A stretch of DNA of 64,000 nt from an uncultured Alphaproteobacteria bacterium (GCA_902602845.1 CACKSN010000002.1:11303-75302); one strand, 5' to 3'; shown: positions 1-25,483, counted from the first letter of the stretch. The notes: a model not told the origin generated them from the sequence alone. Numbers and translations are program-made.

Positions 1-588
1 TACTTACCTAAGAATTTAAATCCTCAACTAATTATAGGTAATCATGATAACAGAGATGAGTTTAAAATAAACTTTCCTAATATTGAAACTGATCCAAATG
101 GATTTATTCAATACTTTAAGGATATAGATAATAAACGTCTAATTTTTATAGATACGAATCTGATTAATACTCACCAAGGACATTATTGTGAAAAAAGACA
201 GGAATGGTTAAATAATATTTTAAGTAAGACTAATACAGATACGTATATCTTTATGCATCATAATCCACTTGCATTAGTAAAAGAGGAGAGTGATGGAATA
301 GGATTACAACAAAAAGAAGAGTTTCAAAAAATTTTAATTGAAAATAATAAGATGATAAAACATATTTTTTTTGGTCATCAACATATTACAAGTTCTGGTT
401 CTTATTGTGGTGTTACTTTTTCTTCCCCAAGAAGTACTTGGTCTCCTCTAATACCTAACTTTTCAAATGAATATCGTTTAGGAACAGCAAATACTGATAC
501 AAATTATAATGTTGCAATAATTAGATCTGACGCCCTAATTATTCATACAGAGGATTTTTTAAAAACAGAAGTTAATTGGTTTAAATAA
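1..588 (+). CDS. Calcineurin-like metallophosphoesterase, CpdA/Icc/GpdQ type (5'-truncated by window edge)
   Basis: Frame 1 is open from base 1 (YLPKNLNPQLIIGNHDNRDEF...IFIDT...HQGH...IFMHHNP...FFGHQH). It carries the GNHD, HHxP and GHxH metal-binding motifs. The ORF track start at 253 is internal. Confidence 0.85.
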   Translation, partial: YLPKNLNPQLIIGNHDNRDEFKINFPNIETDPNGFIQYFKDIDNKRLIFIDTNLINTHQGHYCEKRQEWLNNILSKTNTDTYIFMHHNPLALVKEESDGIGLQQKEEFQKILIENNKMIKHIFFGHQHITSSGSYCGVTFSSPRSTWSPLIPNFSNEYRLGTANTDTNYNVAIIRSDALIIHTEDFLKTEVNWFK

Positions 589-591
589 AAA

Positions 592-1698
592 TTATTTTTT
601 TTCGATTACAAAAATTTCGTTGTTAAAATAAAGTCCTTTATTTTTTTTAACTATTTTTTGAACTACTTTTTCATAGTTTTTAGTTTTTTCTATTTTCATT
701 ACTTTGTCGTCATCCATTTGATTGACATATATAGATGCATTCCAAGCAGAAAAAACTAATGATGTCGCTATACCTCCACTGATTTCTGTTGGTAGAGCTC
801 TCAATTTACATTTAATAATTCTTTTTTCTCCAAAAGATAAACTGCTTAATAAATCTTTATCTAAATTTTTCTTAAGATAAGAAATGATACTATTTCCAAG
901 AGAAGGAAAGGGGTTCTCTTTTGGCCAAATTTTTCTAATTATTTCATTAGCAGGATCTTTTCCTGCTGCATGAATAGTTAATAATTTCCCTTTTGATTTT
1001 AATGCTCTAATCATTGGTTCGATGACGTATTTTGATTTCTTTTCTGCAGAAATTCTTGAGCGATAAGGCTGTGAAGCAATAATAAGATCAAATTTATTAT
1101 CTGATTTTTTTTTGGTAGGTATTAATTCATTAACATTAAATTCTTGATCTTCGCGGTAGATAACCATCACTGAAGGTTCTTTATAAGTATGGTTACCTGA
1201 CTTTTTATTAATTTCTATATTCCATTTTTTTTCTAAAAATTCATTTTGTTTTCTTAATTGTTGGGCAAATTCAAGAGAAGTATCTCCTTTTAATTTAACA
1301 ATATTCCAATTAATTTTTTTCTGTTTAACTTCATTTTTTGATTTAAGGTTTGCGGCTTCCGCGTAGTGTAGATTTGAAATGACAAAAACAGTGTTCTTAT
1401 GTTCAACAAACCTGTCGGGTAATTTTTCTAAACCTAACCTTACATCTTCAATACTTATTTCTTTTGTGCAAATTAATAGAGGTACGTTAGGCCTAGCCTC
1501 GTGGCACTGACGCATAACATTCATAAGTAAGGAACCATCACCCATACCAGCATCAAATATTTTTATGCCAGGTTTTTGAGGTTTAATTTTATTTACGTGG
1601 GGGCGAATAGCATCGGCAATTTGATTTTTTTCATTTGTTGTTGTGACAAATAATAAGTATTTTTGTCTGTTATCATAAAACCTAAAATTTTTTTTCAT
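592..1698 (-). CDS. Conserved hypothetical protein, class I SAM-dependent methyltransferase-like
   Basis: 368 aa with IFDAGMGDG (motif I-like), KEIS and FDLIIASQPY (motif IV-like). It starts 2 nt after the Fe-ADH stop. Confidence 0.55.
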   Translation of the reverse strand: MKKNFRFYDNRQKYLLFVTTTNEKNQIADAIRPHVNKIKPQKPGIKIFDAGMGDGSLLMNVMRQCHEARPNVPLLICTKEISIEDVRLGLEKLPDRFVEHKNTVFVISNLHYAEAANLKSKNEVKQKKINWNIVKLKGDTSLEFAQQLRKQNEFLEKKWNIEINKKSGNHTYKEPSVMVIYREDQEFNVNELIPTKKKSDNKFDLIIASQPYRSRISAEKKSKYVIEPMIRALKSKGKLLTIHAAGKDPANEIIRKIWPKENPFPSLGNSIISYLKKNLDKDLLSSLSFGEKRIIKCKLRALPTEISGGIATSLVFSAWNASIYVNQMDDDKVMKIEKTKNYEKVVQKIVKKNKGLYFNNEIFVIEKK

Positions 1699-1700
1699 TA

Positions 1701-2813
1701 CTAATAAAGTCCCATTGATTTAGCAGAAGAGATGAAGGCTTCTTTATTGCCAATAAAGTTTTTACCTCGTTCCCCTAAAAACGCATCATCTACTATATTA
1801 TTCCATTCTTGAACAGGAACTTTTATTTCATTTAAGTTAAGAGGAACCTCTAAAGAACGCATAAATTCACTCAAATGATTTGCAGCATTCTCTAGATTAT
1901 CGTTAAAAATTAATTTTAGTCTTTCCTCAGCTACACTGTCAATTCCAACCATACTTTTAGTAATCATGGGTAAAGTAAATGAACAAGCAATACCATGCTG
2001 AATACCGTAATTGAGTGTCACAGGGTATGATAGATTGTGCGCAATAGCAGTTTTCGTATTGGAAAACGCTAAGCCAGCATGAACGCAAGCACGTGCAATA
2101 TTTGATCGTAATTCAACATTTCTCAGATCTTTTGAAAGCAATGGTAAATTTTCTAATACCAGTTTTGATGCTTGTATTGCATGAGAAGCAGAAATTGGGT
2201 TCGCATTAATATTCCAAATACTTTCCATTGAATGGGATAGTGCATCTAAACCAGTTGAAATGGTCAAGCCTAAAGGCTTATCAACCATAATAGATGGATC
2301 AATAATTGCTTTTTCTACATAAAGAGATTTATGCGCCAAAGATAATTTATTATTTTTTTCTTTATCCCATATTGTGGCCCAACACGTAAGCTCACTTGAT
2401 GTTCCAGAAGTTGTAGGTACCGCAATAATCTTGATTGGATTTTCAACTTTTGGACTTTTCTTATTTCGAACGAAACCTGTTAGATATTCTTGTTTATCTT
2501 TAAATGCGGCAATTGCTTTAGCTGTATCTGTAACAGATCCACCGCCTATAGCTAAAATATAATCTACCGTTTCATTGATTGAAGAAAATTTATTTTGTAA
2601 CTCTAAAATATCCTTATAGTCTGGATTAGGCTGAACATCCGTCATAATAGATAAAGGTGGATTTGAAGATGAATTTAATTCATCGCTATATTTTTTAAAA
2701 ATTTCTTCTGGATGAGTGATTATGATGTAGTTCTTATTTTTAAGAGCATCATGTACTTCTTTAAATCTATTTTCTCCAAAAATAATTTCGACTGGGTTAA
2801 AATAATTCCACAT
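1701..2813 (-). CDS. Iron-containing alcohol dehydrogenase, phosphonate-associated (phosphonoacetaldehyde reductase/PsrA-like, TIGR03405-like)
   Basis: GGGSxxD, PTTSGTSSE, DALSH, AIAHNLSY and HG Fe-ADH motifs. The WxYxNPV N-terminus and GxRGKNFIG C-terminus resemble the phosphonate-associated clade. Confidence 0.8.
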   Translation of the reverse strand: MWNYFNPVEIIFGENRFKEVHDALKNKNYIIITHPEEIFKKYSDELNSSSNPPLSIMTDVQPNPDYKDILELQNKFSSINETVDYILAIGGGSVTDTAKAIAAFKDKQEYLTGFVRNKKSPKVENPIKIIAVPTTSGTSSELTCWATIWDKEKNNKLSLAHKSLYVEKAIIDPSIMVDKPLGLTISTGLDALSHSMESIWNINANPISASHAIQASKLVLENLPLLSKDLRNVELRSNIARACVHAGLAFSNTKTAIAHNLSYPVTLNYGIQHGIACSFTLPMITKSMVGIDSVAEERLKLIFNDNLENAANHLSEFMRSLEVPLNLNEIKVPVQEWNNIVDDAFLGERGKNFIGNKEAFISSAKSMGLY

Positions 2814-2817
2814 TACT

Positions 2818-3897
2818 TTAAATTGATTTTGCCGCTTTAGTTAAAATTGTCATTTTCTCAATTGCTTGTTCTCGCGTAAAGAAACCTAAACCACAATCTG
2901 GTGCAGCTATTAAACGGTGTTCATCAATATGTTCTAGTGAATCTTTGATACGAACTCTTACTTCTTCAACAGACTCCATTCTACTTTTTGCAATATCAAT
3001 AAATCCAAAAATTACTTTTGTTTTAGTAAATTTTTCTAAAAGATTTAAATCATTATGCCTATGTGAATCTTCTAAAGATACTTCATCAATAGTTGAGTCA
3101 TCTACAAGTGATGCAATTCTATCATAAGCATCTAGATCAGCCTTTTTATATCCTTCTGAATCTAATGAGTTAGGATAACCACAACAAATATGGCAAACGC
3201 GTTGCACTTCTTTAGGTATACCATGCATCATTCTTTCTAAATTTTCCATACCGTAAGAATGGGCTTCATCAGGCTTTCTGGCAAATACTGGTTCATCAAT
3301 TTGAATATACTGACAACCTGCATCTACAAGTGCTTTAACTTCTTTATTCAGGGCTAATGCTAAATCAAAACCAAGTTTCTTCATGTCATCATAGTAATTA
3401 TTTGCAATTGAATCTGTAATTGTCATTGGTCCAGGTAGCGTAATTTTAACTGGGTTTTTTGTAAATTGTTGTGCACTCTTCCAGTCTAAATGCATACGTA
3501 TTTCTTTACTTGAAATTGGTGCAACGATAGTTGGAAGGTCTGCTTCGAACGCACCTTGTCTTACTGACTTATGTGTAACTTCCTGAAAACTTACACCATT
3601 TAAAAATCGACATTGATATAATACATAACTCTCGCGCCTAACTTCCCCATCTGTTGGAACATCAATACCCGCACTTACTTGATCAGTTATAACTTCTTTA
3701 ATTGCTGCTAAAAATAATTTTTCAGCATCCGCACCTGCAGACTCTAATGCTTTTTCATATGCGCCAGGTGACCAATTTGATAATAATCCTTTTGATGCTT
3801 TTCTCTCTTCTTCTGATTTTGTACCTAAAAACCAATCTTGAATGGGTGTTTGTTTAGGTTTTGGATAAGCACCTATTGTAGTTGTTTTAAGAGGCAT
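2818..3897 (-). CDS. Cobalamin-independent methionine synthase II family protein (single-barrel MetE catalytic-domain-like, Zn-thiol alkyltransferase)
   Basis: TTTIGAYPKP, DGEVRR, KITLPGPMT, IQIDEP, HICCG (H-x-C Zn ligands), SLE and PDCGLG motifs. At 359 aa it lacks the N-terminal barrel of full MetE. Confidence 0.85.
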   Translation of the reverse strand: MPLKTTTIGAYPKPKQTPIQDWFLGTKSEEERKASKGLLSNWSPGAYEKALESAGADAEKLFLAAIKEVITDQVSAGIDVPTDGEVRRESYVLYQCRFLNGVSFQEVTHKSVRQGAFEADLPTIVAPISSKEIRMHLDWKSAQQFTKNPVKITLPGPMTITDSIANNYYDDMKKLGFDLALALNKEVKALVDAGCQYIQIDEPVFARKPDEAHSYGMENLERMMHGIPKEVQRVCHICCGYPNSLDSEGYKKADLDAYDRIASLVDDSTIDEVSLEDSHRHNDLNLLEKFTKTKVIFGFIDIAKSRMESVEEVRVRIKDSLEHIDEHRLIAAPDCGLGFFTREQAIEKMTILTKAAKSI

Positions 3898-3920
3898 CTA
3901 TTTTTACTCCCATTTAAATT

Positions 3921-3954
3921 TAAAATAAAACAGCGGCTTTTATAAAGCCGCTGT
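3921..3954 (-). terminator. Intrinsic terminator / mRNA-stabilising hairpin after the binding-protein gene
   Basis: ACAGCGGCTTT-TAT-AAAGCCGCTGT forms an 11-bp stem (3930-3954), followed on the minus strand by TTTATTTT. Confidence 0.75.
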
Positions 3955-3984
3955 AATAAAAAGTTAATAATAAATAATCTCAAA

Positions 3985-5238
3985 TTACATAAGATCGTTT
4001 ATTTCTTCCATCATTTCTTCTTGAAGATCTGCCATATCATCAGCGTCGCCTGTAGCAATTTCTTCCGTGAAATCATAGATTACCTGTGTAACAGCTAATC
4101 CATTTTCTCCAGGATACGCAAACCAATCAGCAAGAAGTGGAAGTTGTTCAACAGCAGTAAGTTTATTAGGGTTTTGACTATAGAAGTCACCTAATAAATC
4201 ATTCGCTGCTTTGTTTGGTGGAACATATCCAGTTGTTTCAGCAACTAATGCAGCACCGATACCTGATGTAATGAACTTTAAGAAAGTCCATGCAGCATCA
4301 ACTCTTGCTGGATCATCAGATGTAGACACTAACATTGCAGCGTTTCCACCTGCTGGTAATCTTGCTGGTGTTCCATTGTTTACTCCAGCCATTCCAGGGA
4401 ATGGTGCAGTTTTTAAAACAAAGTCTGCCTTTGCAGCATTAACTGAACCCAAGCTTGAAGTAGACCAGAACATCATACCAATAGTACCTGCGTTAAACGC
4501 AGCTTGACCATCAGCAATTGAATAGTTTGGCATATTACATCCGCTCATGATTGATTTCATTTGCTCTAACGTTGCAAGTCCTGCATCTCCACCCATATTT
4601 ACAGCTCCATCTTTAACCATTGGAACATTCTGAGTATGCATTAATGCTTGGTGGAACCAGTTACCTGTAATGTTCCAACCAAAGTATAGAGTTCCTTTAC
4701 CAGCTGCTTCTAATTTATTACATGCTGCAATAACTTCGTCCCAGTTAGTTGGAATACTATCTACACCTGCTTCAGCTAATAAATCCATATTATAATATCC
4801 AACTGGTGTTGATACAGAAAATGGTAATCCATAAACTTCACCACCGAATGTTGAAAGACTTAACATAGCAGAATGGTAACCATCTTTTTCAAAAGCTGCT
4901 TCTTTTGCGATAAATGGCTCTAAAGATTTAGCAATACCTTTGTCAACTAGAGGTGCCTGTCTGTTAAGACCTTGCATTGTTACATCTGGTAAATTACCTG
5001 AAGTAGACTCTCTGAAGATTGTTGCAGTTGCATCCTCATAGTTTTCATAAGTTGCTCTAAATTTAACTTGAATATCTGGATGTGCTTTTTCAAACTCTGG
5101 CATAATAGCTTGAAACGTAACATCGAATAATCCTGAATAAGGATAAGCTACTTCTATTTCAATAGACTTAGCTGAATTAACAGAACCATAAAAACCGAAA
5201 GCTAATACGGCTGCCAATCCTGTAATTAATTTTTTCAT
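3985..5238 (-). CDS. ABC transporter substrate-binding protein, CUT1/UgpB-like
   Basis: Signal peptide, FEKAHPDIQV, LPDV, YGLPFSVSTPVGYYNMDL, PTNWDE, AAWTFLKF and TGYVP. Strong RBS GGGAGG. Confidence 0.85.
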   Translation of the reverse strand: MKKLITGLAAVLAFGFYGSVNSAKSIEIEVAYPYSGLFDVTFQAIMPEFEKAHPDIQVKFRATYENYEDATATIFRESTSGNLPDVTMQGLNRQAPLVDKGIAKSLEPFIAKEAAFEKDGYHSAMLSLSTFGGEVYGLPFSVSTPVGYYNMDLLAEAGVDSIPTNWDEVIAACNKLEAAGKGTLYFGWNITGNWFHQALMHTQNVPMVKDGAVNMGGDAGLATLEQMKSIMSGCNMPNYSIADGQAAFNAGTIGMMFWSTSSLGSVNAAKADFVLKTAPFPGMAGVNNGTPARLPAGGNAAMLVSTSDDPARVDAAWTFLKFITSGIGAALVAETTGYVPPNKAANDLLGDFYSQNPNKLTAVEQLPLLADWFAYPGENGLAVTQVIYDFTEEIATGDADDMADLQEEMMEEINDLM

Positions 5239-5290
5239 TTAATCCTCCCGATTGAATATAATAATTTAATCTAACATGTAGTCCCAAAGG

Positions 5291-5319
5291 GTTACAATTT
5301 TATTACGAAAATATTACTA
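5291..5319 (-). promoter_or_regulatory. Putative Pho box (three 11-bp-spaced half-sites) upstream of the binding-protein gene
   Basis: Minus strand reads TAGTAAT-ATTT-TCGTAAT-AAAA-TTGTAAC, similar to the PhoB consensus CTGTCAT-A(A/T)A(A/T)-CTGT(C/A)A(C/T). Confidence 0.55.
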
Positions 5320-5374
5320 AAAAATAAGCTTATTTTTCCACAGCAATAGAGAAAAATTAGAGAAAAAATGATTT

Positions 5375-6817
5375 TTACCAGGGTAGTGAGAAGGTTTTTA
5401 CATTAGTAAAGCTTTTCATTGCTTCAATTACACCTTCTTTATAACCAAGACCTGAATCTTTAATTCCTCCAAAAGGAGACATTTCAATTCTATAGCCTGG
5501 AACTTCCCAAATATTTACAGTGCCAACATTTAAGCCTTGAATATATTTTTTTGCTCTCATGAAGTTATTTGTACATACACCAGATGATAATCCGAATGCG
5601 GTTGAATTAGATATTTTCATTACAGCTTCATCGTCATTAGGCACACGAATGATTGGTATAACTGGACCAAATGTTTCTTCTAAAACTAATTCACTTTTAG
5701 GATCAACATGATCTACAACTATTGGAGGTAACAAAGCACCCTTTCTTCCAGGGTGATATAAAATTTTTGCACCGTCTTCTTCAGCCATAGAAACTCTTTT
5801 ATCAAAAAGTTCTGCAGCTTGAGCATTAACAACAGTACCTAAGTCTGTTTCCATATTCATAGGATCACCAAATTTAATTTTCTTAGCACGCTCGAGAGCC
5901 ATTTCAACAAATTGATCTGCAATGGATTCTTGAACCAGTATTCTTTTAACAGCTGTACAACGTTGACCAGAGTTTTTCGTTGCTCCAGTAACAGCTAGCT
6001 CAACAGCTTTTTTAAGATCATCACCATCTAAGTCATTTAAAACAATTAAAGGATCATTACCACCAAGCTCAAGAACTGTTCTTTTGTATCCAGCTTGTTC
6101 AGCAATTAATTTTCCTACACCTACACTGCCTGTAAAAGTAATTAGATCAATATTTGGATTCTTGATCATTTCTGATCCGATATCTTGAGGCCATCCAGTT
6201 ACAACTGAAAACATTTCTGGTGGTAAACCTGCTTCATATAAAACATCAGCAAGTACCATTGCTGTTAAGGGTGTTAATTCTGTTTGTTTACATACAGTAC
6301 AATTATTAGTTGCAATTGAAGGTGCAATTTTATGCGCTACCATATTCAAAGGATGATTGAATGGAGTGATTGCTGAAATTGCCGTTAAAGGTTCTCTTAT
6401 GGTAAATATTTTTCTCGCTTTTCCATGCGGAGTTAAATCACAAGAAAATATTTCTCCATCATCAAGAATACAAAGTTGAGCCGTTAATGAAAAGACATCA
6501 AAAGCTCTTCCTACTTCGTATAAAGAATCTTGTTTTGAGATACCAAGTTCTAAAGTAATAATATCAGAAATTTCTTCTTTTCTTTTAACAAGTACTTCTG
6601 CAGCAGTTTGAAGAATTTTTTGTCTCTCGTATCTTGTAAGTTTAGGTTGGTAATTTGCAGCAATATCTAAAGCCTTTCTAGCATGCTCTGCAGTACCGGC
6701 TGGAACCGTTCCGATTACTTCACCTGTAAAAGGGTACTCAACATTTATTGTTTTATCTGAGGTAACTTTTTCTCCAGCAATACGCATTGCTTCATTAATC
6801 ATTTTTTTGTGCATCAT
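5375..6817 (-). CDS. phnY: Phosphonoacetaldehyde dehydrogenase
   Basis: Aldehyde dehydrogenase motifs (ITPFNHP, ELGG, SGQRCT, EETFGP) plus the PhnY-specific [22 protein letters not shown] and [13 protein letters not shown]. Overlaps the phnA stop. Confidence 0.93.
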
Positions 6818-8055
6818 AGGGCTCCGTTAATTGCATAGTAAAATGCATCATAGTTATATAATTGTTTGTTAGTATCTAAATTTTGTAATTTTAAATTTGA
6901 TATGAATGGCACTTCTCTTTCATGAAGTCCACCGTGTGAACGTAAAGGTTCATTTAATCCAGAAAGATTGTGTTTATCTTCTGATGAACCAATAGTCATA
7001 AATTCTGAAGACATACATATAATATCCCCCATTCTATCTGGAGGTAAATTATAAGAAGAGCATCCTTCGTCTTTTGTTAAAACAACTTCTATATCTTTTA
7101 TTTCTTTTATAGCATCTACAACTGAATCTATCTTACTTTTGTCTTCTAAATAAATTGTTGCAAAAGAACCAAGTGAACCATGATGCACAACATATGGATC
7201 TGTAATTGGAAGAATAACTTTAGCCATGTTTGGTTCAAATTTTTTATCTAAATAATCTTGTAAAAATATTGCATTAGGTGAACCATCTTCTTTTGATTTT
7301 GGTTTCATACCGTGATCTGCTGTGATGATTATAGAAACATTCTCCTTATTTAAAAGACCAATATATTTATCAAACATTGCATAAAATTTATTTGCTGTTT
7401 CATTTCCTGGCGCATATTTGTGTTGAATATAATCCGTAGTCGATAAATACATGATATTTGGTTTGAACTCTTCAAGAAGCTTTACACCTGCAGCCATTAC
7501 AAATTCAGAAAGTCCTTCAGAGTATACTTCTGGCACTGGCATCCCTAACCAATCGTTTACATTATCTATACCATTGAGATCTTTTGTTGCTTGATCAGAT
7601 TTTTCAGCAGAAAAACAAATAGCTCTCTCATCATCAAAACTTAATCCGTTTCCTAAAAGTGTTCTCAGCTTATCTTTTGCAGTAACAAGCGCAATTTTAG
7701 AACCAGAATTGTAAAATTTTTCAAAAATAGTTGGTGCTCGCATATATTTTGGGTCATTCATCATTACTTCTTCACCGGTCTCGGGTGTATAAAAGAAGTT
7801 TCCGCATATACCGTGAACAGAACTTGGTTGGCCTGTTACAATCGAAATATTATTTGGATTTGTAAAACTTGGAATAGCGCTGTGAACTAGTAGGTTTTCA
7901 CCACTTGCAATTAATTTATCAAGGTTTGGTGTAAGATTTGATTTTGATGCTTCTTCGAGATACTCTTTTTGACTACCATCAAGGCAAATCACAATAGCAG
8001 TTTTTGAAAAATTACTTGGATATTCTCTTTTATTAATTTCTAAGTTATCGGACAC
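6814..8055 (-). CDS. phnA: Phosphonoacetate hydrolase
   Basis: Alkaline-phosphatase superfamily: [56 protein letters not shown] and LRSHGG. GTG start. Confidence 0.93.
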
Positions 8056-8133
8056 AATTTCATCTAATATATATTATTAAAAATACGAATTTATAGTTAT
8101 CTGCTAGTTAAACTCAATGATAATTTGAATATT

Positions 8134-8177
8134 TGTTAATAAAATTGAAATAAAACTGAAATAAATCGATTTAAAAT
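8134..8177 (+). promoter_or_regulatory. Putative Pho-box-like promoter for the ABC ATPase/permease operon
   Basis: TGTTAAT-AAAA-TTGAAAT-AAAA-CTGAAAT has an 11-bp period and is followed 9 nt later by a TAAAAT -10 element (8172-8177). Confidence 0.45.
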
Positions 8178-8231
8178 ATTCTCAAATTTAATAAAATTTT
8201 GTAGATTAAAGTTAAGATAGAGGGGGAATGA

Positions 8232-9365
8232 GTGGGGACTATATCACTTAAAAATATTTCAAAGTCATTTGGGTCTACACAAGTACTTAATAATTTGAAT
8301 GTTGATATAAACGATGGAGAATTCTTAACATTAGTTGGTCCATCTGGTTGTGGTAAATCTACATTACTTAGAATAATTGCAGGATTGGAACAACAAACTT
8401 CGGGCGATGTATTAATAGATAATAAAAATGTAAATAGAGTTAGAGCCAGTGAAAGAGATTTGGCAATGGTATTCCAATCATATGCTCTTTATCCTCATCT
8501 CACAGTAAGAAGAAATTTAGAAACTCCATTAAGACTAAGAGACTATAATGCATTTGAAAGACTGCCCTTAATTGGTAATTTTTCTCCAAGCAAAAAGGAT
8601 AAGACAGAATCTATAAATCAATTAGTAAATAAAACTTCTGAAACTCTAAAAATTTCAGAACTATTAGATAGAAAACCTGGACAATTGTCAGGTGGTCAAA
8701 GACAAAGAGTTGCTCTTGGTCGTGCTATGGTTAGAGAGCCTGTTGCCTTTTTAATGGATGAACCTCTTTCAAATTTAGATGCGGCCTTGAGAGTTCACAT
8801 GCGATCTGAACTATCTGAACTTCATAATTCACTTAAAACTACTTTTGTGTACGTAACACATGATCAAGCAGAAGCGTTAACTATGTCTTCTCGAATGGCT
8901 GTTATGATTGATGGAAATTTATTACAACTAGATACACCTCAAGAAGTATATGACAATCCTTCCTCATTAAGTGTGGCTCAATTTGTTGGAAGTCCAAAAA
9001 TAAATATATTTAAAGGAACTGCCGACTCTAGTGGGACTGTAAGTTTTCTCAATGTTAATCTAAAAAGAAAAAGTTCTGAAAGTAATACAGACTTACATAT
9101 TGGTATTCGACCAGAACATTTAGAAATTACAAATGAAAGTAATGAAAATACATTTAGTGGAACAGTAGCATATAGAGAAAATTTAGGTTCAGATATTTTC
9201 TTTCATGTAAATATTGAAGACGGTTCAAATAAAATAATTGTAAGGGGCTTACCACAATTTACAAATCAAATTTCAAACGGTTCTAATGTGAATATTAAAA
9301 GAGTTTCAGATAAAGCATTACTATTTAGTGAAGCAGGAATGAGGGTTCAATTTACTAATGCATAA
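8232..9365 (+). CDS. ABC transporter ATP-binding protein, UgpC/MalK-like
   Basis: GPSGCGKST, VFQSYALYPH, LSGGQRQR, DEPLSNLDA, YVTHDQ and a C-terminal GIRPEH TOBE domain. Confidence 0.93.
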   Translation: MGTISLKNISKSFGSTQVLNNLNVDINDGEFLTLVGPSGCGKSTLLRIIAGLEQQTSGDVLIDNKNVNRVRASERDLAMVFQSYALYPHLTVRRNLETPLRLRDYNAFERLPLIGNFSPSKKDKTESINQLVNKTSETLKISELLDRKPGQLSGGQRQRVALGRAMVREPVAFLMDEPLSNLDAALRVHMRSELSELHNSLKTTFVYVTHDQAEALTMSSRMAVMIDGNLLQLDTPQEVYDNPSSLSVAQFVGSPKINIFKGTADSSGTVSFLNVNLKRKSSESNTDLHIGIRPEHLEITNESNENTFSGTVAYRENLGSDIFFHVNIEDGSNKIIVRGLPQFTNQISNGSNVNIKRVSDKALLFSEAGMRVQFTNA

Positions 9366-10314
9366 TTCAAAAGCTCATATATGGTTTATTGCACCAGCAA
9401 TAATACTGATGATAATTATTTTAATTTTTCCTCTTTTTCTTGCAGGAGGAATTTCTTTTACTGACTATAATTTAGGAAACAAAACATTCGAGTGGGTTGG
9501 ACTAGAAAATTATGACAAAATGTTCAATCGCAAAACATATGTCAAAATGATTTGGGCCACAGCGACGTATGTTATTGTTGTCGTTCCAATTTCTGTTGTA
9601 CTTGGATTATGTGCTGCTATGCTCTTAAATTCACTAAGGTTTGGCGCTGATATATATAAAACAATTTTCTTTCTTCCAGTTATGGCTACTCTTCTTGCAA
9701 TGGCGATTGCATGGGAATTTACTCTTCATCCAACATTAGGAATCGTAAATAGTTTTTTAGCAAATGGGTGTGGAGGAGTTAGAGAATTCATTCTTGGTTT
9801 TCATTGGTTACCTTGGGTAGACTCTCAAGAAAGCTGGTATGCAGTGGCGTGTGCAAACAACATGGATTTTCCATATTGGTTAAAACAAAAAAATACTGCG
9901 ATTTGGACAGTATGTTTCATAGGAATTTGGCAGGCTTTTGGTTTTAATATGGTTTTATATTTAGCTGGCTTAACAAGTATACCAAGGGAGTTATACCAAG
10001 CTGCAGAAATGGATGGAGCAAAATCCACATGGGAACAATTTAAACTTGTTACATGGCCAATGCTTGGTCCAACAACGTTGTTTGTTGTCACTATTACTAC
10101 CATTAGAACATTTCAAGTATTTGATACCATCGAAATACTTACTAAAGGTGGTCCATCAAAAACAACGTATGTCATGATGTATGCAATCTTTGAAAAAGCT
10201 ATTCAACAAAACTTAACAAGTATCGGTGCAGCAATCACTGTCGTCTTTATTGGGTTTATTCTTGTGTTAACGTTTTTCCAAAGATATGTCATTGAGAAGA
10301 GGGTTCATTATTAA
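9358..10314 (+). CDS. CUT1 ABC transporter permease, UgpA/MalF-like
   Basis: About six TM segments and an EAA loop (ELYQAAEMDGA). Confidence 0.9.
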   Translation: MHNSKAHIWFIAPAIILMIIILIFPLFLAGGISFTDYNLGNKTFEWVGLENYDKMFNRKTYVKMIWATATYVIVVVPISVVLGLCAAMLLNSLRFGADIYKTIFFLPVMATLLAMAIAWEFTLHPTLGIVNSFLANGCGGVREFILGFHWLPWVDSQESWYAVACANNMDFPYWLKQKNTAIWTVCFIGIWQAFGFNMVLYLAGLTSIPRELYQAAEMDGAKSTWEQFKLVTWPMLGPTTLFVVTITTIRTFQVFDTIEILTKGGPSKTTYVMMYAIFEKAIQQNLTSIGAAITVVFIGFILVLTFFQRYVIEKRVHY

Positions 10315-11207
10315 TGGAAGCTAAACAATATATTGGGGAAGGTTGGAAGCATGCAATCTTAATTATTGGGGCAATCGTAGTGATGCTCCCTTTTTATATG
10401 ATGGTTTCTATGTCATTAAAGTCTCAGCAAGAAATCCAATCAATATCTGGCGGTCTTATTGGTGCGCAAGAAACTCAAACGTTTCCCGTATGTGTTAAAA
10501 CTGGTTATTCAGAAGAAACATGTACAATGAAACCATATCAATACAACTATTGGTTTGCTTTTGAAAAAGCTCCTATTCCTAGATACTTAATGAATGGTGT
10601 CATTGTTACTTTATCAATCTTCATCATTCAGGTTCTTGTTGCCTTACCGTGCGCCTATGCACTCGCCAAGTTGCGGTTTTACGGGCGAGAGTTTGTTTTC
10701 TCGATGGTTTTATTTTGTTTGCTCATACCAGTACACGGAATTGCGCTTCCATTGTATGTTATGTTGGCCCAGGCAGGATTAGTTGACACCTATTCCGCCT
10801 TAATACTCCCCTGGACAATATCGGTGTTTGGAATCTTTTTAATGCGGCAATTCTTTATGACGGTACCAGATGAATTAATTGATGCCGCCAGGATGGATGG
10901 TATGGGAGAGTACGCTATCGTATGGAAAGTAATGCTTCCAACTGCAATACCAGCGTTACTTGCTTTTGCAATATTCTCAGTTGTTGCACACTGGAATGAT
11001 TATTTCTGGCCTCGAATGGTAATAACAGGAAATAGAGATCTCTTTACGCCACCACTTGGTATAAGAGAATTCAGAGGCGGAATTGATAGTGATGAATTTG
11101 GTCCTATGATGGCTTCGATAGTTACAGTAACCGTTCCTCTAATTGTTGCTTTTATAATCGCGCAAAAACGATTTATTGAAGGAATTACTTTGACAGGCAT
11201 GAAGTAA
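10314..11207 (+). CDS. CUT1 ABC transporter permease, UgpE/MalG-like
   Basis: PDELIDAARMDG, WNDYFWP and QKRFIEGITLTGMK motifs. Confidence 0.9.
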   Translation: MEAKQYIGEGWKHAILIIGAIVVMLPFYMMVSMSLKSQQEIQSISGGLIGAQETQTFPVCVKTGYSEETCTMKPYQYNYWFAFEKAPIPRYLMNGVIVTLSIFIIQVLVALPCAYALAKLRFYGREFVFSMVLFCLLIPVHGIALPLYVMLAQAGLVDTYSALILPWTISVFGIFLMRQFFMTVPDELIDAARMDGMGEYAIVWKVMLPTAIPALLAFAIFSVVAHWNDYFWPRMVITGNRDLFTPPLGIREFRGGIDSDEFGPMMASIVTVTVPLIVAFIIAQKRFIEGITLTGMK

Positions 11208-11221
11208 ATTCTTATCTACTG

Positions 11222-12070
11222 ATGACATTGTCAGTAAATTTTATTTTTATCTTAATTCTTGTATCTGCTCTATGTCATGCAGTTTGGAGTGCTATAATTA
11301 AATCAAGTAAGAACCCTTTATCCTTAATGGGTATAACATCTGTCTTAGAAGTTACTATTTTTTTACCTTTAACATTTACTGTACCATTTCCTACTTTAGA
11401 GGTTTGGTATTTTTTAATTGCAACCGTAATCATTCATGTTATTTATAGATTGAATGTAATTTATTCTTATAGATACGGAGATCTTTCGTACATATACCCA
11501 ATTTCTAGAGGAAGTTCGTGTCTGTTTGTTGCAATCATCAGTATTTTATTTTTAAGTTCCAATATTAGTGTTGCTGGTTTTGTTGGAATATTAATTGTAT
11601 GTATTGGATTATTTTTAATTTCTTATTCTAAAAATTTATCTTTTAACTTCAGAGGTTTTGCTCTTGCGATATCAACAGCTATTCTAATTACTGCTTACAC
11701 TTTAGTTGACGGGGTCGGGGTTAGATTTTCTGAAAATGGATTTTCCTATATTTACTGGCTCTTCACACTTAATGGAATACCTTTGCTAATTATTGGTTTG
11801 ATCTCGAAAGATGGTTTACGAAAAAGAAAAACATACACTTTTAGATCTGGGATTGCTGCTGGTATATTTGCAACAAGTAGTTACGCAATTGTTGTTTGGA
11901 GTATGCAATTTATAGAAATAGCTTATGTCTCTAGTATTAGAGAAATAAGCATTGTGTTTGCTACTATTATTGGAATGCTTTTCTTATTTGAGAAGAATGC
12001 AAAATCTAGGATAATACCTTCTATTTTAATAGTGAGTGGTATTTCGGTTGTTTATTTTCAAATTCTATAA
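11222..12070 (+). CDS. EamA/DMT membrane protein, phosphonate-utilisation-associated type
   Basis: About 10 TM segments. SALCHAVW, GDLSYIYPISRG, YTLVDG and SSIRE resemble the TIGR03340-like subfamily. Confidence 0.75.
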   Translation: MTLSVNFIFILILVSALCHAVWSAIIKSSKNPLSLMGITSVLEVTIFLPLTFTVPFPTLEVWYFLIATVIIHVIYRLNVIYSYRYGDLSYIYPISRGSSCLFVAIISILFLSSNISVAGFVGILIVCIGLFLISYSKNLSFNFRGFALAISTAILITAYTLVDGVGVRFSENGFSYIYWLFTLNGIPLLIIGLISKDGLRKRKTYTFRSGIAAGIFATSSYAIVVWSMQFIEIAYVSSIREISIVFATIIGMLFLFEKNAKSRIIPSILIVSGISVVYFQIL

Positions 12071-12105
12071 GGAAAAAATGTAGACTTTTTGCACGAAAAT
12101 TTTAT

Positions 12106-12654: not shown

Positions 12655-13902
12655 ATGTTTAAGGTACTACAAAACACTTGGGCCCTTTTTTTTGGCTTTG
12701 CTCTAATTAGTCTTGGTCATGGATTGCAAGGAACACTAATCGGTGTGCGTTCTGTTTTAGAAGGTTTTAGTTTTTTTGCATCAGGACTTATTATAGCTGG
12801 TTATTACGTTGGATACTTAACTGGCGCATTAACAATTCCAATATTTTTACAACGTGTTGGTCATATAAGAGTTTTTGCTGCTTTAGCATCGCTTGCTTCT
12901 ATCGCTATATTATTACACTCAATATTTGTTCATCCGTATTCATGGATGTTTATACGAATATTAACTGGTTTAAGTCTTGCTGGAATTTATGTGATCATGG
13001 AAAGTTGGTTGAATGAAAAATCAACTAATCAAACTCGCGGTCAATTACTTTCTGTTTACATGATTATTACTTTTGTATTCGTTGGGGCAGGACAATTTTT
13101 ATTAAATTTAGGTGATCCAGCTAAAGTTGATTTATTTATTTTAGTATCAATCTTATTATCATTTGCACTTCTTCCTATTCTTTTATCTTCAACAGAACAA
13201 CCTAGTACAGAAAGTCCTAAATTTTTTTCTTTAAGAGAATTTTATAGTGTTTCACCTTTAGGTTTTGTTGGTGCCTTAGCAACTGGTTTATCGCATAGTG
13301 CAGTTTTTGGATACGGTGCAATTTATGCATCATCTATTAGTTTAAGCTTATTTGAAATTTCTCTGTATATGATGATTATAACGTCAGCTGGCGCCCTATC
13401 TCAATGGCCTATTGGATATTTGTCAGATAGAATTGATAGACGTATTATTCTTATTGGTGTTTCTTTTATGGCTTCAGGTTTGAGTTTATTTTTTGTTTTT
13501 GCAAATTTTATGCCGCTAGCATTATTCTTAATTTTTACTGGTCTTTTCTCTATTGCATGTTTACCAATGTATTCACTTACGGTTGCGCATACAAATGACT
13601 TCTTACAACCTAATGAGATAGTATCAGCAAGTGCAACCTTTGGTATACTTATTGGCATTGGATCAATTATCGGACCTTTGTTTGTTTCTAGTTTCATGGA
13701 AATTTTAGGAGCGGTAGGTTTTTACATCTATTTATTTTTAATACATGGACTGCTAGGACTTTTTGGTTTGTATAGAATGACACAAAGAATTAAACCACGT
13801 GATCTTGAATCACAATACAATCCTTTACCACGAAATATTAGTCCTGCCGGTATGGAAATGAATCCAGTTACTGAGCCAACTGAGGACGAGAAAGTCTTTT
13901 AA
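12655..13902 (+). CDS. MFS transporter, YcaD-like
   Basis: About 12 TM segments with RVGHIRVFAA, ESWLN, QWPIGYLSDRIDRR and AHTND motifs. Confidence 0.85.
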   Translation: MFKVLQNTWALFFGFALISLGHGLQGTLIGVRSVLEGFSFFASGLIIAGYYVGYLTGALTIPIFLQRVGHIRVFAALASLASIAILLHSIFVHPYSWMFIRILTGLSLAGIYVIMESWLNEKSTNQTRGQLLSVYMIITFVFVGAGQFLLNLGDPAKVDLFILVSILLSFALLPILLSSTEQPSTESPKFFSLREFYSVSPLGFVGALATGLSHSAVFGYGAIYASSISLSLFEISLYMMIITSAGALSQWPIGYLSDRIDRRIILIGVSFMASGLSLFFVFANFMPLALFLIFTGLFSIACLPMYSLTVAHTNDFLQPNEIVSASATFGILIGIGSIIGPLFVSSFMEILGAVGFYIYLFLIHGLLGLFGLYRMTQRIKPRDLESQYNPLPRNISPAGMEMNPVTEPTEDEKVF

Positions 13903-14473
13903 ATATTCTGTGAAGTAACAAAAGAATAATTATTCCCATATAAATAACTGGTTCAGTTTTATCAGCGCGAACTAAAACATAAAAATGCATACTAGCTAGA
14001 ATAGCTACAGGATATATTAAGTAATGAATTTTCTTCCACAATTTAAAACCTAATTGCTTAATCATATTGTTCGTTGAAGTGCTAGCAAGCGGGATTAAAA
14101 ATAGAAAACTAATAAAACCAAAAGTTATAAAAGGTCTTTTTATAATATCTTGTATGATAAATTGTATATCTAAGAAATGATCTAAAACGATGTAAGTAGA
14201 GAAATGTAAACAGACATAATAGAAAGCAAAAAGACCAATCATTCTTCGTAAGACAACTATCGATTTTAAAGTTTTAATATTTGATAGACTACTTATTATA
14301 AGAGTTATTATTATTAATCTGAGTGCCATCAGACCTAACTCATCCATTAGCTTTTCAATTGGATTTACTCCAAGATTCCCAGTAACAAATTGATATGCCC
14401 AGAGTAGACTAGGAAATAGAATTAAAATAAATAAGACGGGCTTACTGCGATTAAAATTTCTTGTTGAAAACAT
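13868..14473 (-). CDS. msrQ: Methionine sulfoxide reductase heme-binding membrane subunit
   Basis: LGVNPIE, RRMIGL, YVCLH, KRPFIT, PLASTS and WKKIHYLIY motifs; lies downstream of msrP. Confidence 0.9.
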   Translation of the reverse strand: MFSTRNFNRSKPVLFILILFPSLLWAYQFVTGNLGVNPIEKLMDELGLMALRLIIITLIISSLSNIKTLKSIVVLRRMIGLFAFYYVCLHFSTYIVLDHFLDIQFIIQDIIKRPFITFGFISFLFLIPLASTSTNNMIKQLGFKLWKKIHYLIYPVAILASMHFYVLVRADKTEPVIYMGIIILLLLHRIFKRLSRPQLAQ

Positions 14474-14476
14474 TCA

Positions 14477-15394
14477 TTAATAAAATTTAGTCAAATCTAA
14501 ATCTTTATAGAGATGTGCTACTTCTTCTTCATATCCATTAAACATAAGTGTTTCTCTTCTTTTAAACTCTCCAATTCGTCTCTCTGTTCCTTGACTCCAT
14601 CTTGGATGGTTAACATTGGGATTAACATTAGCATAAAAACCATATTCCCAAGGAGCTAGAGTTTCCCAGGATGTTTCGGGTTGTGTATCTAAAAATCTAA
14701 TTTCCACAATTGATTTAATTGATTTGAAACCATACTTCCATGGCACAACTAATCTTATAGGTGCGCCATTTTGATTAGGCATTTCATGACCATACAATCC
14801 AGTTGCTAATATTGTTAGAGGATTCATTGCTTCATCCATTCGAAGTCCTTCTCTATATGGCCAAATGATTGTTCTTTTTTGCTGACCTGGCATTTCTTCT
14901 GGTCTAAATACAGTTACGAACTGAACAAATTTTGCTGAACTTAGAGGTTCAGCCATTTTTATAAGTTCTGATAATTGAAAACCCTGCCAAGGAATAACCA
15001 TGGACCACGCCTCAACACATCTTAATCGATATACTCTATCCTCTATTGTTACATTTGATAAAATTTTTTCTAAGTCAAATGTTTGAGGTTTTTTCACAAG
15101 ACCGTCTATTTTTATAGACCATGGCCTAGGCTGAAAATTTCCAGAGTTTAAATGAGGGTGTTTTTTATGGGTGCCAAATTCATAAAAATTATTATAGGTT
15201 GTAATTTCTTCATAAGAATTAAGTTTATCATTCTCATTTAAATTTTTATTATAAATTGAAAGATCGCTATCATGATTTGCAAAAGCTGATGATGATACTG
15301 TTGCCAACAAGGCGCTTGCTAATGAGCCCTTAATAAACTTTCGTCTGTTTAAGTAGGTTTTATATGGAGTAATTTCAGAGCCTAAAATCTTCAT
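14477..15394 (-). CDS. msrP: Periplasmic molybdo-methionine sulfoxide reductase catalytic subunit
   Basis: Tat motif NRRKFIK plus TYNNFYEFG, RLRCVEAWSMVIPW, QNGAPIRLVVPWKYGFKSIKSI and HPRWSQ. Confidence 0.93.
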   Translation of the reverse strand: MKILGSEITPYKTYLNRRKFIKGSLASALLATVSSSAFANHDSDLSIYNKNLNENDKLNSYEEITTYNNFYEFGTHKKHPHLNSGNFQPRPWSIKIDGLVKKPQTFDLEKILSNVTIEDRVYRLRCVEAWSMVIPWQGFQLSELIKMAEPLSSAKFVQFVTVFRPEEMPGQQKRTIIWPYREGLRMDEAMNPLTILATGLYGHEMPNQNGAPIRLVVPWKYGFKSIKSIVEIRFLDTQPETSWETLAPWEYGFYANVNPNVNHPRWSQGTERRIGEFKRRETLMFNGYEEEVAHLYKDLDLTKFY

Positions 15395-17292: not shown

Positions 17293-18177
17293 ATGAGTCA
17301 TACAAGAGCTAATATACTAATGTTAATTGCTTCACTTATTTGGGGTACAGCGTTCGTAAGCCAAACTACAGGGATGGGGGCAATAGGTCCTTTTACTTTT
17401 AGCTTTGGAAGATTCTTTTTTGCTTTTTTAACAGTAATTCCATTTGCTTTTTATCTAGAACAGCAAAATGTTTTAAAAATATTGAGTGATAGAAAAAAAA
17501 TTTATCTTTGTTTGGCTACAGGTTTTTTCCTTTTTGGTGGGATGGGTCTGCAACAATACGCTTTACAAAAATCATTAATATCAAATGCAGCCTTTCTTAG
17601 TACTCTTTATGTTCCTTTTGTTGGTGTAATTTCAAGATTTATAATTAAAAAACAGGTGCACTGGATTATTTGGATTGCAATTTTACTTTGTTTATACGGA
17701 TCATATCTTTTGTCCTCTAATCAATCAGTTGAAATTCAACAATCAGATTCGCTCTTGTTTCTTGCTGCTTTATTTTTTGCCTTGCATATTATTTGTATTG
17801 ATATTTTTATAAAAGAACTCAACAGTCCCTTTTTATTTGGAAGTATTCAGTACTTTATTGTTTTTATTTTATCTATGATTTTAGCCTTCATGTGGGAGGA
17901 GCCCAAGCTCTCAAACATGCAGATTGAATGGTTTGAAATTTTATACACAGGAATTTTTTCTGCTGGTATTGGATATACACTTCAAATTATTGCTCAACAT
18001 AAAGCTAATCCTGCTCCAGCTGCTATTATTTTATCAATGGAGTCAGTCTTTGCTGCAATAGCAGGTTGGATACTTTTAAATCAAGTTTTAGACACACAAA
18101 AAATACTTGGATGTCTTGCAATATTTGTTGGAGTCATTATAGTACAATTAATACCAATTATAATTAAACAAAAATGA
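17293..18177 (+). CDS. DMT/EamA family transporter
   Basis: IWGTAFVSQ, LQQYAL and AAIILSMESVFA motifs; about 10 TM segments. Confidence 0.85.
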   Translation: MSHTRANILMLIASLIWGTAFVSQTTGMGAIGPFTFSFGRFFFAFLTVIPFAFYLEQQNVLKILSDRKKIYLCLATGFFLFGGMGLQQYALQKSLISNAAFLSTLYVPFVGVISRFIIKKQVHWIIWIAILLCLYGSYLLSSNQSVEIQQSDSLLFLAALFFALHIICIDIFIKELNSPFLFGSIQYFIVFILSMILAFMWEEPKLSNMQIEWFEILYTGIFSAGIGYTLQIIAQHKANPAPAAIILSMESVFAAIAGWILLNQVLDTQKILGCLAIFVGVIIVQLIPIIIKQK

Positions 18178-20115: not shown

Positions 20116-20144
20116 ATAAATAAAAATACCTATATAATAATAAT

Positions 20145-21056: not shown

Positions 21057-21077
21057 TTTTAGTGTAATAGGTATTTT

Positions 21078-22124: not shown

Positions 22125-22127
22125 GTT

Positions 22128-23723: not shown

Positions 23724-23740
23724 AACAGTTAACCTATAAT

Positions 23741-24754: not shown

Positions 24755-24914
24755 ATAACCTTCTTTTTTTGTGGAGATAATAAATATCTCCACGTTCTAT
24801 GATTAAGAATCTTATTAAAAATTATCAGAATACGAATGAAGATCTATATAAATTTTTTTTTAATATCAGTGTTGTTAAAATTCATAAAGTTAGATTTATT
24901 CTAAATTTAAAGTT

Positions 24915-24941
24915 AAAAATGTTGGGGCCACTTTGGGCCCC
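24915..24941 (-). terminator. Intrinsic terminator of ibpA
   Basis: Minus strand reads GGGGCC-CAAAGT-GGCCCC then AACATTTTT, just after the stop at 24951. Confidence 0.7.
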
Positions 24942-24950
24942 TATCCAAAA

Positions 24951-25388: not shown

Positions 25389-25446
25389 AATAACTCCTTT
25401 ATTAAGCAAGTTTCTTGTCCGCACCCACAATGGCATACAGACAATA
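25386..25446 (-). promoter_or_regulatory. ROSE-like RNA thermometer in the ibpA 5' UTR
   Basis: A 5' hairpin TTGTC...GACAA is followed by AACTTGCTT-AAT-AAAGGAGTT, where the U(U/C)GCU motif pairs with the AGGA Shine-Dalgarno. Confidence 0.7.
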
Positions 25447-25449
25447 ATA

Positions 25450-25477: not shown

Positions 25478-25483
25478 TCTTTA

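Follow-up and report, generated by a model that had tools for sequence, protein, structure and literature searches.

A SAR11 phosphorus-scavenging cluster that probably combines a PhnW-dependent 2-aminoethylphosphonate pathway with add-on modules

The 64-kb stretch of DNA analysed here (contig C2:11303-75302, C2 being CACKSN010000002.1 of assembly GCA_902602845.1; hereafter the window) comes from a SAR11 (Pelagibacteraceae) bacterium, and its first 12,070 positions carry the phosphonate genes phnY and phnA together with genes for an iron-family alcohol dehydrogenase (Fe-ADH), a GpdQ-like esterase, a MetE-like protein, an S-adenosylmethionine (SAM)-dependent methyltransferase, a Ugp-like ATP-binding cassette (ABC) importer and an EamA membrane protein. 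We read positions 1-12070 as the right-hand part of a phosphorus-scavenging cluster of about 15 kb, which probably encodes an ordinary PhnW-dependent hydrolytic pathway for 2-aminoethylphosphonate (AEP) equipped with add-on modules; to this reading as a whole we assign a probability of roughly two in three (0.68). A preliminary description, made from the window, had proposed a new pathway that works without phnW. All genes that it listed are present where it had placed them, as judged by open reading frame (ORF) calls and profile scores, and its caveat that the locus is cut by the window edge was well founded: the esterase gene starts 201 nt left of base 1, with phnW some 0.9 kb away from base 1 on the same side. 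Its premise that phnW is missing thus falls, the gene sitting just outside the window, as the preliminary description had itself allowed. That no gene for PhnW, PhnX, a flavin adenine dinucleotide (FAD) amine oxidase or C-P lyase occurs in the 64 kb is literally true inside the window, the absence of phnW being an artefact of the window edge.

The phnW ORF occupies C2:9300-10439, with a likely ATG at 9342 and a family match over C2:9354-10412. Its product scores 512 bits against NF010006 (cut-off 296) and 461 bits against TIGR02326 (cut-off 400.8), and is the single PhnW match in the entire genome. The other two core genes overlap within the window:

5375-6817, minus strand: PhnY, phosphonoacetaldehyde dehydrogenase (full-length match to TIGR03250, 797.4 bits, cut-off 635.65; next family 420.6)
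6814-8055, minus strand: PhnA, phosphonoacetate hydrolase (TIGR02335, 469.4 bits, cut-off 407.55; residues 6-411 of 413)

Profile scores above curated cut-offs identify the three predicted proteins as PhnW, PhnY and PhnA, and established knowledge of their families supplies the chemistry: PhnW would convert AEP to phosphonoacetaldehyde, PhnY would oxidise the aldehyde to phosphonoacetate, and PhnA would cleave the latter to acetate and phosphate. Lockwood et al. 2022 (PMC9381506) assigned metagenomic reads of phnAWYZ to several Alphaproteobacteria, Pelagibacterales included. The source assembly (1.03 Mb, 57 contigs, about 31% G+C) is 67.6% complete, so that genome-wide absences in it are weak; within it, no match to PhnX reached the cut-off, PhnJ had zero matches, neither a PhnD-family binding protein nor phosphoenolpyruvate (PEP) mutase was found, and none of the 11 DAO-family matches lies on contig C2.

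Related loci likewise have phnW in the cluster. A search with the MetE-like protein returned 70 distinct loci, all from SAR11-type assemblies and 81-99% identical (three of them partial matches). When 22 proteins of the region served as tblastn queries, nearly all of these loci proved to hold the whole cluster. Fifty-three of them extend over the interval from phnW to EamA, and 49 of the 53 show all 14 genes, from a PhnZ-like oxygenase gene to the EamA gene; phnW itself was detected in 59 of the 70. Of the remaining 11 loci, ten break off on the phnW side 0-318 nt beyond the last gene detected there, and the eleventh holds none of that side's genes. An extra ABC transporter separates the esterase gene from an AllA-like gene in three of these 11, as it also does in genome G461, in which phnW was found about 2 kb beyond the stretch first examined. 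The phnW-less new pathway is consequently not supported, as no related SAR11 locus that extends far enough lacks phnW.

A wider sample, drawn from the 101 PhnA-positive genomes of the family, comprised 20 loci with PhnA at 67-92% identity, to which the locus L106 was added; genomes at 93% or more match the long form already sampled and were left out. The cluster varied as follows:

L184, L192, L197: minimal set of phnW, AllA-like gene, phnY, phnA and EamA gene
L183, L193, L195: minimal set plus the methyltransferase gene
L181, L182: minimal set plus the esterase gene
L186, L187, L188, L194, L106: minimal set plus the methyltransferase and esterase genes
L189, L190, L191: minimal set plus the methyltransferase, esterase and Fe-ADH genes, with neither MetE-like nor ABC genes
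L185, L199, L200: full set; L198 likewise, without the methyltransferase gene

The core thus consists of phnW, the AllA-like gene, phnY, phnA and the EamA gene, and the PhnZ-like oxygenase, the GpdQ-like esterase, the SAM methyltransferase and the Fe-ADH are optional modules. Some loci have the Fe-ADH but not the importer, and the MetE-like protein, binding protein, ATPase and permeases always occur together in SAR11 loci. Across the family, many of whose 116 genomes are incomplete, PhnA is found in 101/116 and the Ugp-like binding protein in 70/116, and 68 of these 70 also have PhnA. The only possible case of phnY-phnA without phnW that we encountered is a sister-genus genome, G505 (85% complete), which has a PhnZ-like gene adjoining phnY-phnA (L196, G505:C8:1-15000) and no PhnW above cut-off anywhere in its assembly; no Fe-ADH, importer or esterase gene was found in the 15 kb examined. 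The co-occurrence of accessory genes with phnA-phnY, which the preliminary description had put forward as a check, holds within SAR11 and breaks down outside it.

Median nucleotide identity across the related loci (L006-L075) is 95-97% from the MetE-like gene through the permeases, 85-93% from PhoU_div to the AllA-like gene, and 95% for a major facilitator superfamily gene on the right flank; it peaks for the MetE-like, binding-protein and phnY genes (96-97%) and is 85-91% for PHO4, the PhnZ-like gene and PhoU_div. We draw no conclusion about a selective sweep, as the loci were chosen by MetE-like similarity and the pattern may be a selection effect.

Set against the known PhnW-PhnY-PhnA (phnWAY) pathway, the SAR11 locus agrees in having all three enzymes, above curated cut-offs and clustered. 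It differs in splitting the genes over two convergent apparent operons, in interleaving them with genes for the AllA-like protein, the GpdQ-like esterase, the SAM methyltransferase, the core-MetE-like protein and a CUT1 importer, and in having neither a LysR regulator nor an AepX/PhnS-type binding protein inside the cluster. Gene spacing outlines the units: phnW, the AllA-like gene and the esterase gene, in that order, form one apparent operon (gaps of 7 and 22 nt); the MetE-like, Fe-ADH and methyltransferase genes form another on the minus strand (gaps of 4 and 2 nt); the ATPase, permease and EamA genes form a third, divergent from phnA; and the binding-protein gene lies 136 nt beyond the overlapping phnA-phnY pair. 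One candidate termination signal was noted:

3930-3954, minus strand: terminator-like hairpin just downstream of the binding-protein gene (stem of 11 pairs, 6 of them G-C, with a T run after it)

A scan for sigma-70 consensus promoters was no richer than shuffled sequence (27 versus 27.5; 38 versus 57.8), and the AT-rich intergenic regions yielded no trustworthy Pho box or other motif.

The 11.3 kb examined to the left of the window hold, in order, genes for PhoR, a PlcP-like metallophosphoesterase with a GT4 glycosyltransferase, PhoU_div with PHO4, a DSP phosphatase, the PhnZ-like protein, PhnW, the AllA-like protein and the esterase. The first part of this run lies directly upstream of the phn genes:

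L003:2641-8675 (contig C2): phosphate-stress run of PhoR, PlcP-like metallophosphoesterase and GT4 glycosyltransferase, PhoU_div and PHO4 transporter, and DSP-type phosphatase

This position argues that the phn cluster belongs to a larger phosphate-starvation island. The PlcP-like metallophosphoesterase and the GT4 glycosyltransferase form a pair of the lipid-renovation type.

Three accessory genes stand closest to the core:

L003:10447-11079 (contig C2), same strand as phnW: AllA (ureidoglycolate lyase)-like protein of 210 aa, directly after phnW
Left of the window, divergent from phnW: PhnZ-like HD oxygenase (TIGR03276, 201.8 bits, cut-off 214.6)
11222-12070, plus strand: EamA/DMT membrane protein (Pfam EamA; best NCBIfam match TIGR03340, 143.7 bits, cut-off 288.15)

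Wherever both were seen in a SAR11 locus, the AllA-like gene directly follows phnW, and no other accessory gene is linked to phnW as tightly. H119, D121, H169 and H189 are invariant in its family and R191 nearly so; its structural model (mean predicted local distance difference test, pLDDT, 88.6) has its nearest matches among ureidoglycolate lyases (E 1.3e-8, TM-scores 0.54/0.67). A role as a cupin-type oxygenase, which the H-x-D, H, H and R residues had suggested by resembling a metal site, is less favoured, as the fold is nearer to ureidoglycolate lyases (E 1e-8) than to 2-oxoglutarate oxygenases (E > 5e-3). Beyond SAR11, homologues were sought in a sample of about 400 alphaproteobacterial genomes; 20/401 have an AllA-like gene, and 16 such loci (39-55% identity over the tblastn match) showed no recurrent partner and no phn genes, with the sole exception of a PhnZ-like neighbour in L201. 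The PhnZ-like protein reaches 156 bits against TmpB and 157 against PhnZ1, each with a cut-off of 300. A TIGR03276-type HD oxygenase divergent from phnW recalls the TmpA/TmpB and PhnY*/PhnZ cleavage systems, as do, for TmpA/TmpB, the homologues of the SAR11 MetE-like gene that adjoin TmpA/TmpB-like pairs in other Alphaproteobacteria; unlike those systems, the SAR11 cluster shows no partner 2-oxoglutarate dioxygenase (PhnY*/TmpA), no TauD or PhyH match being found among its proteins, and its HD protein falls just below cut-off. The EamA gene stands beside phnA in almost every SAR11 variant examined, and its best family, TIGR03340, is named 'phosphonate utilization associated putative membrane protein'.

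A side entrance to the pathway may be provided by the dehydrogenase:

1701-2813, minus strand: PhpC-type Fe-ADH (Pfam Fe-ADH and ADH_Fe_C; best NCBIfam match TIGR03405)

Against TIGR03405 (Phn_Fe-ADH, named PsrA by NCBI) the protein scores 361 bits, below the cut-off of 423.7, with the next family at 159 bits. Its genomic association with phnY-phnA is seen here in the cluster and in L189-L191, where the gene directly adjoins phnY. By analogy with characterized relatives, it is likely a dehydrogenase of 2-hydroxyethylphosphonate (HEP), and would open an entrance for HEP that yields the same phosphonoacetaldehyde for PhnY and PhnA. PhpC-type pf00465 dehydrogenases and a second class, PbfG, are described as oxidising HEP to phosphonoacetaldehyde in vitro, a step that couples to PhnX in the case of PhpC-type enzymes, and PhpC/PbfG genes as accompanying phnX or phnY-phnA and seldom phnW (Piazza et al. 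2026, PMC13576164); phpC inside phnW/phnAY operons was noted already in 2022 (PMC9381506). The oxidation of HEP by the Fe-ADH, as the preliminary description envisaged it, is therefore plausible, with TIGR03405 the best profile by some 200 bits and the family activity on record, yet no longer new. The SAR11 cluster matches the degradative PhpC-type clusters of PMC13576164 in pairing a pf00465 Fe-ADH, best matched by TIGR03405, with phnY-phnA, and departs from them in also holding phnW and in its score under the TIGR03405 cut-off.

The largest add-on comprises the importer and the esterase:

1-588, plus strand: 3' two thirds of the GpdQ-like metallophosphoesterase gene (Pfam Metallophos; full gene C2:11102-11890, 262 aa)
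3985-5238, minus strand: CUT1/UgpB-like periplasmic substrate-binding protein (SBP_bac_1, PF01547, and SBP_bac_8, PF13416; about 119 bits against cut-offs of 26-27)
8232-9365, plus strand, divergent from phnA: UgpC/MalK-type ABC ATPase (ABC_tran and TOBE_2; UgpC subfamily 387.6 bits, cut-off 432)
9358-10314, plus strand: UgpA-like permease (BPD_transp_1; UgpA 103 bits, cut-off 335)
10314-11207, plus strand: UgpE-like permease (BPD_transp_1; UgpE 128 bits, cut-off 297)

The best solved relatives of the esterase are GpdQ (2zo9/2dxl, E 1.5e-13) and Rv0805. Its motifs SDPH (DxH), GD, GNHD, HH and GHQH (GHxH) align with those of GpdQ 2zo9, all five being kept, and we take the DxH, GD, GNH(D/E), H and GHxH residues to be the metal ligands of the GpdQ-type family. 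The protein falls below the named phosphodiesterase models (SpdA, 174.4 bits versus 400; CpdA, 63.9 versus 225), and its alignment with GpdQ begins at residue 2, leaving no evident signal peptide. Divergent esterases (62-68% identity), with an extra transporter between the esterase and AllA-like genes, were seen at L012:14255-17255, L068:14256-17256 and L040/L050/L070:16300-18950; the transporter comprises a further CUT1-like binding protein plus permeases in some of them and a different ABC set in others. The binding protein of the cluster scores 66 bits against the UgpB equivalog (cut-off 411); its better solved relatives include the UgpB-type structures 9lff, 4mfi, 6r1b and 4aq4, and the top entries are named merely 'sugar ABC transporter' binding proteins. 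By Pfam search it lies outside PF13343 (SBP_bac_6), the family to which the known AEP binding proteins AepX, AepS and PhnS belong (pfam13343; Murphy et al. 2021, PMC8316502).

Homologues of the binding protein occur in 15/401 of the sampled alphaproteobacterial genomes (E <= 1e-40), and 12 such loci (43-66% identity) were examined. Nine of the 12 have an operon of ATPase, permease, permease and binding protein followed directly by a Metallophos gene, the products of these Metallophos genes being 28-37% identical to the SAR11 esterase (with Pfam membership confirmed for two); no phn, Fe-ADH or MetE-like gene was found in any of the 12. The preliminary description was thus right that esterase and Ugp-type importer belong together, and they form a conserved functional pair that is not phosphonate-specific: with phn-free operons elsewhere, their association is no specific sign of phosphonate esters. 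Since the pair stands by itself in those genomes, we read it as a general module that would import and hydrolyse phosphodiesters or phosphonate monoesters; in SAR11 this module would be parked in, and perhaps serve, the phosphonate island, and would not replace PhnW. Import of phosphonate esters by the cluster is possible. The arrangement resembles Ugp uptake coupled to a GpdQ-type glycerophosphodiesterase in its CUT1 binding protein, two permeases and UgpC-like ATPase, in the GpdQ metal-ligand motifs of the esterase and in the operon pairing seen elsewhere. It differs in that all SAR11 proteins score below the Ugp equivalog cut-offs, and in that the genes are scattered among phn genes, with the esterase in the phnW operon.

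AEP itself could enter by another system 9 kb downstream of the cluster:

Window 21078-24793: second ABC system, with ATPase (plus strand), fused 531-aa permease (minus strand) and SBP_bac_6 (PF13343) binding protein at 23741-24793 (minus strand)

Its best NCBIfam matches are 2-AEP transporter families, namely PhnT2 (286 bits, cut-off 458), PhnU2 and PhnS/PhnS2, with scores that in every case stay well under the cut-off. This PhnS2T2U2-like system could, from its sequence, be a candidate AepXVW-like AEP importer. A PF13343 match also lies about 13 kb from phnA in genome G209.

Two predicted methyl-transferring proteins complete the cluster:

2818-3897, minus strand: core-MetE-like zinc methyltransferase of 359 aa (Pfam Meth_synt_2, 121.7 bits against 21)
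592-1698, minus strand: SAM-dependent methyltransferase with a histamine-N-methyltransferase-like fold (weak Methyltransf_31; no Pfam family above cut-off)

A full MetE with its N-terminal folate-binding domain has about 750 aa. The SAR11 protein consists of the catalytic domain alone, lacks the folate-binding N-domain and matches positions 457-750 of TIGR01371; its best solved relative is 3rpd (E 5e-44), with which the HxC, E and C motifs (HICCGY, SLE, PDCGL) align, and the H-x-C, E and C residues are presumably zinc ligands. Against the named methionine-synthase models it reaches about half of the cut-offs (195 versus 406 bits). It resembles the core methionine synthases (core-MetE/Mes; Price et al. 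2021, PMC7857596) in having only the catalytic MetE domain with HxC/E/C conserved, and differs in standing with an ABC importer, no corrinoid protein or MesX-type partner being seen nearby. MetE-like homologues (about 50% identity) occur in 84/401 genomes. Among 11 non-SAR11 loci, three have the homologue directly after a PhnZ/TmpB-like HD gene (G155, L158:7805-12991; L165; L166). The order in G155 is an SBP_bac_5 ABC system, a TauD-family dioxygenase (best match TmpA, 107 bits), an HD oxygenase (TIGR03276, 199 bits; TmpB, 171 bits), the MetE-like gene and a DAO+GCV_T gene (dimethylglycine-dehydrogenase-like). TmpA/TmpB are described as converting trimethyl-AEP to glycine betaine and phosphate (PMC10574752), and the G155 locus may be an extended trimethyl-AEP/betaine demethylation cluster. 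By analogy, these neighbourhoods hint that the MetE-like family handles the methyl group of an onium compound, which we offer as a lead rather than a result.

The source genome has a second MetE-like gene, 49% identical, on contig C13 (L168:8123-9172; C13:8129-9169), with genes for an AptA-type omega-aminotransferase, alanine dehydrogenase, a PTA-family protein, EamA, a CehA/McbA-family metallohydrolase and an SBP_bac_5 ABC system as neighbours. A taurine context for this paralogue was considered and dropped, as the aminotransferase is AptA-type (590 bits, cut-off 500) and not clearly a taurine:pyruvate enzyme.

The SAM methyltransferase is a class I enzyme by its AlphaFold2 model (pLDDT 90.7), for which Foldseek returned 1jqd, a histamine N-methyltransferase, as best match (E 9e-11). 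Within its motif FDAGMGDG, the residues F48, D49, A50, G51, G53 and D54 are invariant and G55 nearly so among 28 sequences. The protein has 5146 homologues, and the few source names given among the best 120 listed read 'hypothetical protein'. Homologues occur in 38/401 alphaproteobacterial genomes, and at 19 loci outside the genus (38-45% identity; 36-43% by tblastn) the gene stands by itself, having neither a recurrent partner nor phn genes close by. The 38/401 and 84/401 tallies include an unpublished genome (G240, locus L083), on which no other statement rests.

Several points weigh against an AEP pathway with add-on modules. Each of its chemical steps is read from family membership; the Fe-ADH, PhnZ-like and EamA scores are all below curated cut-offs; and the operon structure is read from gene spacing only. 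The tight linkage of the MetE-like gene to the importer is left unexplained. The island also lacks a recognised AEP importer, its binding protein being outside the AepX/PhnS family and no PhnD-family match having been found, and for this reason the Ugp-like system could be the phosphonate importer after all. Finally, the esterase gene lies in the apparent phnW operon and persists in SAR11 variants without ABC genes, which fits a phosphonate-specific role better.

The competitor that survives best, though it falls well short of even odds, holds that importer, esterase and MetE-like protein have nothing to do with phosphonates and owe their position solely to shared phosphate-starvation control. 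A glycerophosphodiester such as glycerophosphocholine would be taken up, the esterase would free its phosphate-bearing part, and the MetE-like protein would take a choline- or betaine-type methyl group for methionine synthesis. The typical phosphate-stress genes upstream agree with this, as do the phn-free importer-esterase operons of other Alphaproteobacteria and the PhnS2T2U2-like system that could import AEP instead; so do the MetE-like homologues that follow a TmpB-like HD oxygenase, the G155 copy standing between DAO+GCV_T and a TmpA-like/HD pair with glycine betaine as expected product (PMC10574752). The gene for the SAR11 binding protein, however, lay in the phn island on every contig that permitted checking, and nearly all genomes that have this protein also have PhnA (68/70); moreover, the esterase gene shares an apparent operon with phnW and the MetE-like gene one with the PhpC-type Fe-ADH, and the cluster showed no gene for glycerol-3-phosphate or choline catabolism.

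We consider it unlikely, and less probable than such a mosaic, that the island is dedicated to the head groups of phosphonolipids and phosphonoglycans (glyceryl-AEP, N-methylated forms, glyceryl- or sugar-HEP). This would require jointly that the Ugp-like system imports the ester, the GpdQ-like esterase frees the phosphonate, the MetE-like protein moves an onium-type methyl group onto homocysteine, PhnW or the Fe-ADH makes the aldehyde, and the AllA-like protein is a new phosphonate-pathway enzyme. A phosphonate-ester substrate is favoured by the esterase in the phnW operon, the confinement of the importer to the phn island in SAR11 and the lack of a recognised AEP importer in the cluster, and is disfavoured by the phn-free importer-esterase operons elsewhere, the possible AEP importer downstream and the general phosphate-stress surroundings.

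The narrower route of the preliminary description, by which glyceryl- or sugar-HEP would enter through the Ugp-like importer, be de-esterified by the GpdQ-like esterase, oxidised by the Fe-ADH and finished by PhnY and PhnA with no need for PhnW, is more doubtful still. It draws on the coupling of importer and esterase in one operon at nine of 12 loci elsewhere, the complete GpdQ-type metal site, described hydrolysis of phosphonate monoesters by phosphodiesterases (PMC9371700), and the oxidation of HEP by PhpC-type enzymes (PMC13576164, which also discusses polysaccharide-bound HEP in marine dissolved organic matter). It is at odds with the presence of phnW in this cluster and in each of the 59 related loci that reach far enough for it to be detected, and with importer-esterase operons that have no phn genes outside SAR11. 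Nor are its three accessory parts inseparable, the Fe-ADH occurring without the importer (L189-L191) and the esterase without either, and the sole phnW-less phnY-phnA cluster seen, in G505, shows none of them in its 15 kb.

Least probable of all is a reductive Fe-ADH. PhnW would form phosphonoacetaldehyde from AEP that the cell takes up, and the Fe-ADH would reduce this aldehyde to HEP to supply phosphonates that the cell itself makes. In favour, the equilibrium of the reaction lies on the side of HEP (PMC13576164), the same role was proposed for phpC in catabolic phnW operons (PMC9381506) and a SAM methyltransferase gene adjoins the Fe-ADH gene. Against it, PEP mutase was not found in the incomplete genome, we noticed no biosynthetic gene in the cluster that would consume HEP (such as mpnS or hepD), the Fe-ADH gene has genes for phosphate scavenging around it and phnY and phnA, whose products draw the aldehyde onward, as neighbours, and catabolic use of such enzymes is shown in PMC13576164.

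RNA libraries were not used as evidence for any of these readings: 14 seawater metatranscriptome runs (6 studies) contain 36-44% of sampled words of window 1-10000, and for window 1-12100 all 30 bins are covered by contigs of four runs, each from a different study. The presence of contigs in such a library is no proof of transcription, and depth, including a much higher word depth over the binding-protein gene, is unfit for ranking genes. Elsewhere in the window we noted a methionine-sulfoxide reductase pair, MsrQ and MsrP (164 and 463 bits, both above cut-off), at 13868-15394, and a nucleoside-salvage set of ribokinase-like kinase, adenosine deaminase and thymidine phosphorylase genes within 18174-27450.

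The core of the PhnW-dependent AEP pathway and the HEP-dehydrogenase step are already known; what remains new is the modular build of the island and its conserved accessory genes. The set of importer, esterase, MetE-like and AllA-like genes in SAR11 was not found described in the literature searched, supplementary tables, which may list such clusters, lying outside that search; the words cupin, ureidoglycolate, methionine synthase and phosphodiesterase are absent from two Peracchi-group papers. Of particular interest are the cargo of the CUT1 importer, the constant MetE-like companion and the AllA-like protein linked to phnW.

No heterotroph of the surface ocean is more abundant than SAR11, phosphonates make up a large share of marine organic phosphorus, and their main natural form is esterified. 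With PhnA and the binding protein as widespread among the family's genomes as they are, the substrate imported by the island likely matters for the marine phosphorus cycle. Were that ligand a phosphonate ester, this would identify how esterified phosphonates enter the hydrolytic pathway, and the island would be the first dedicated phosphonate-ester route, in the ocean's most abundant heterotroph.

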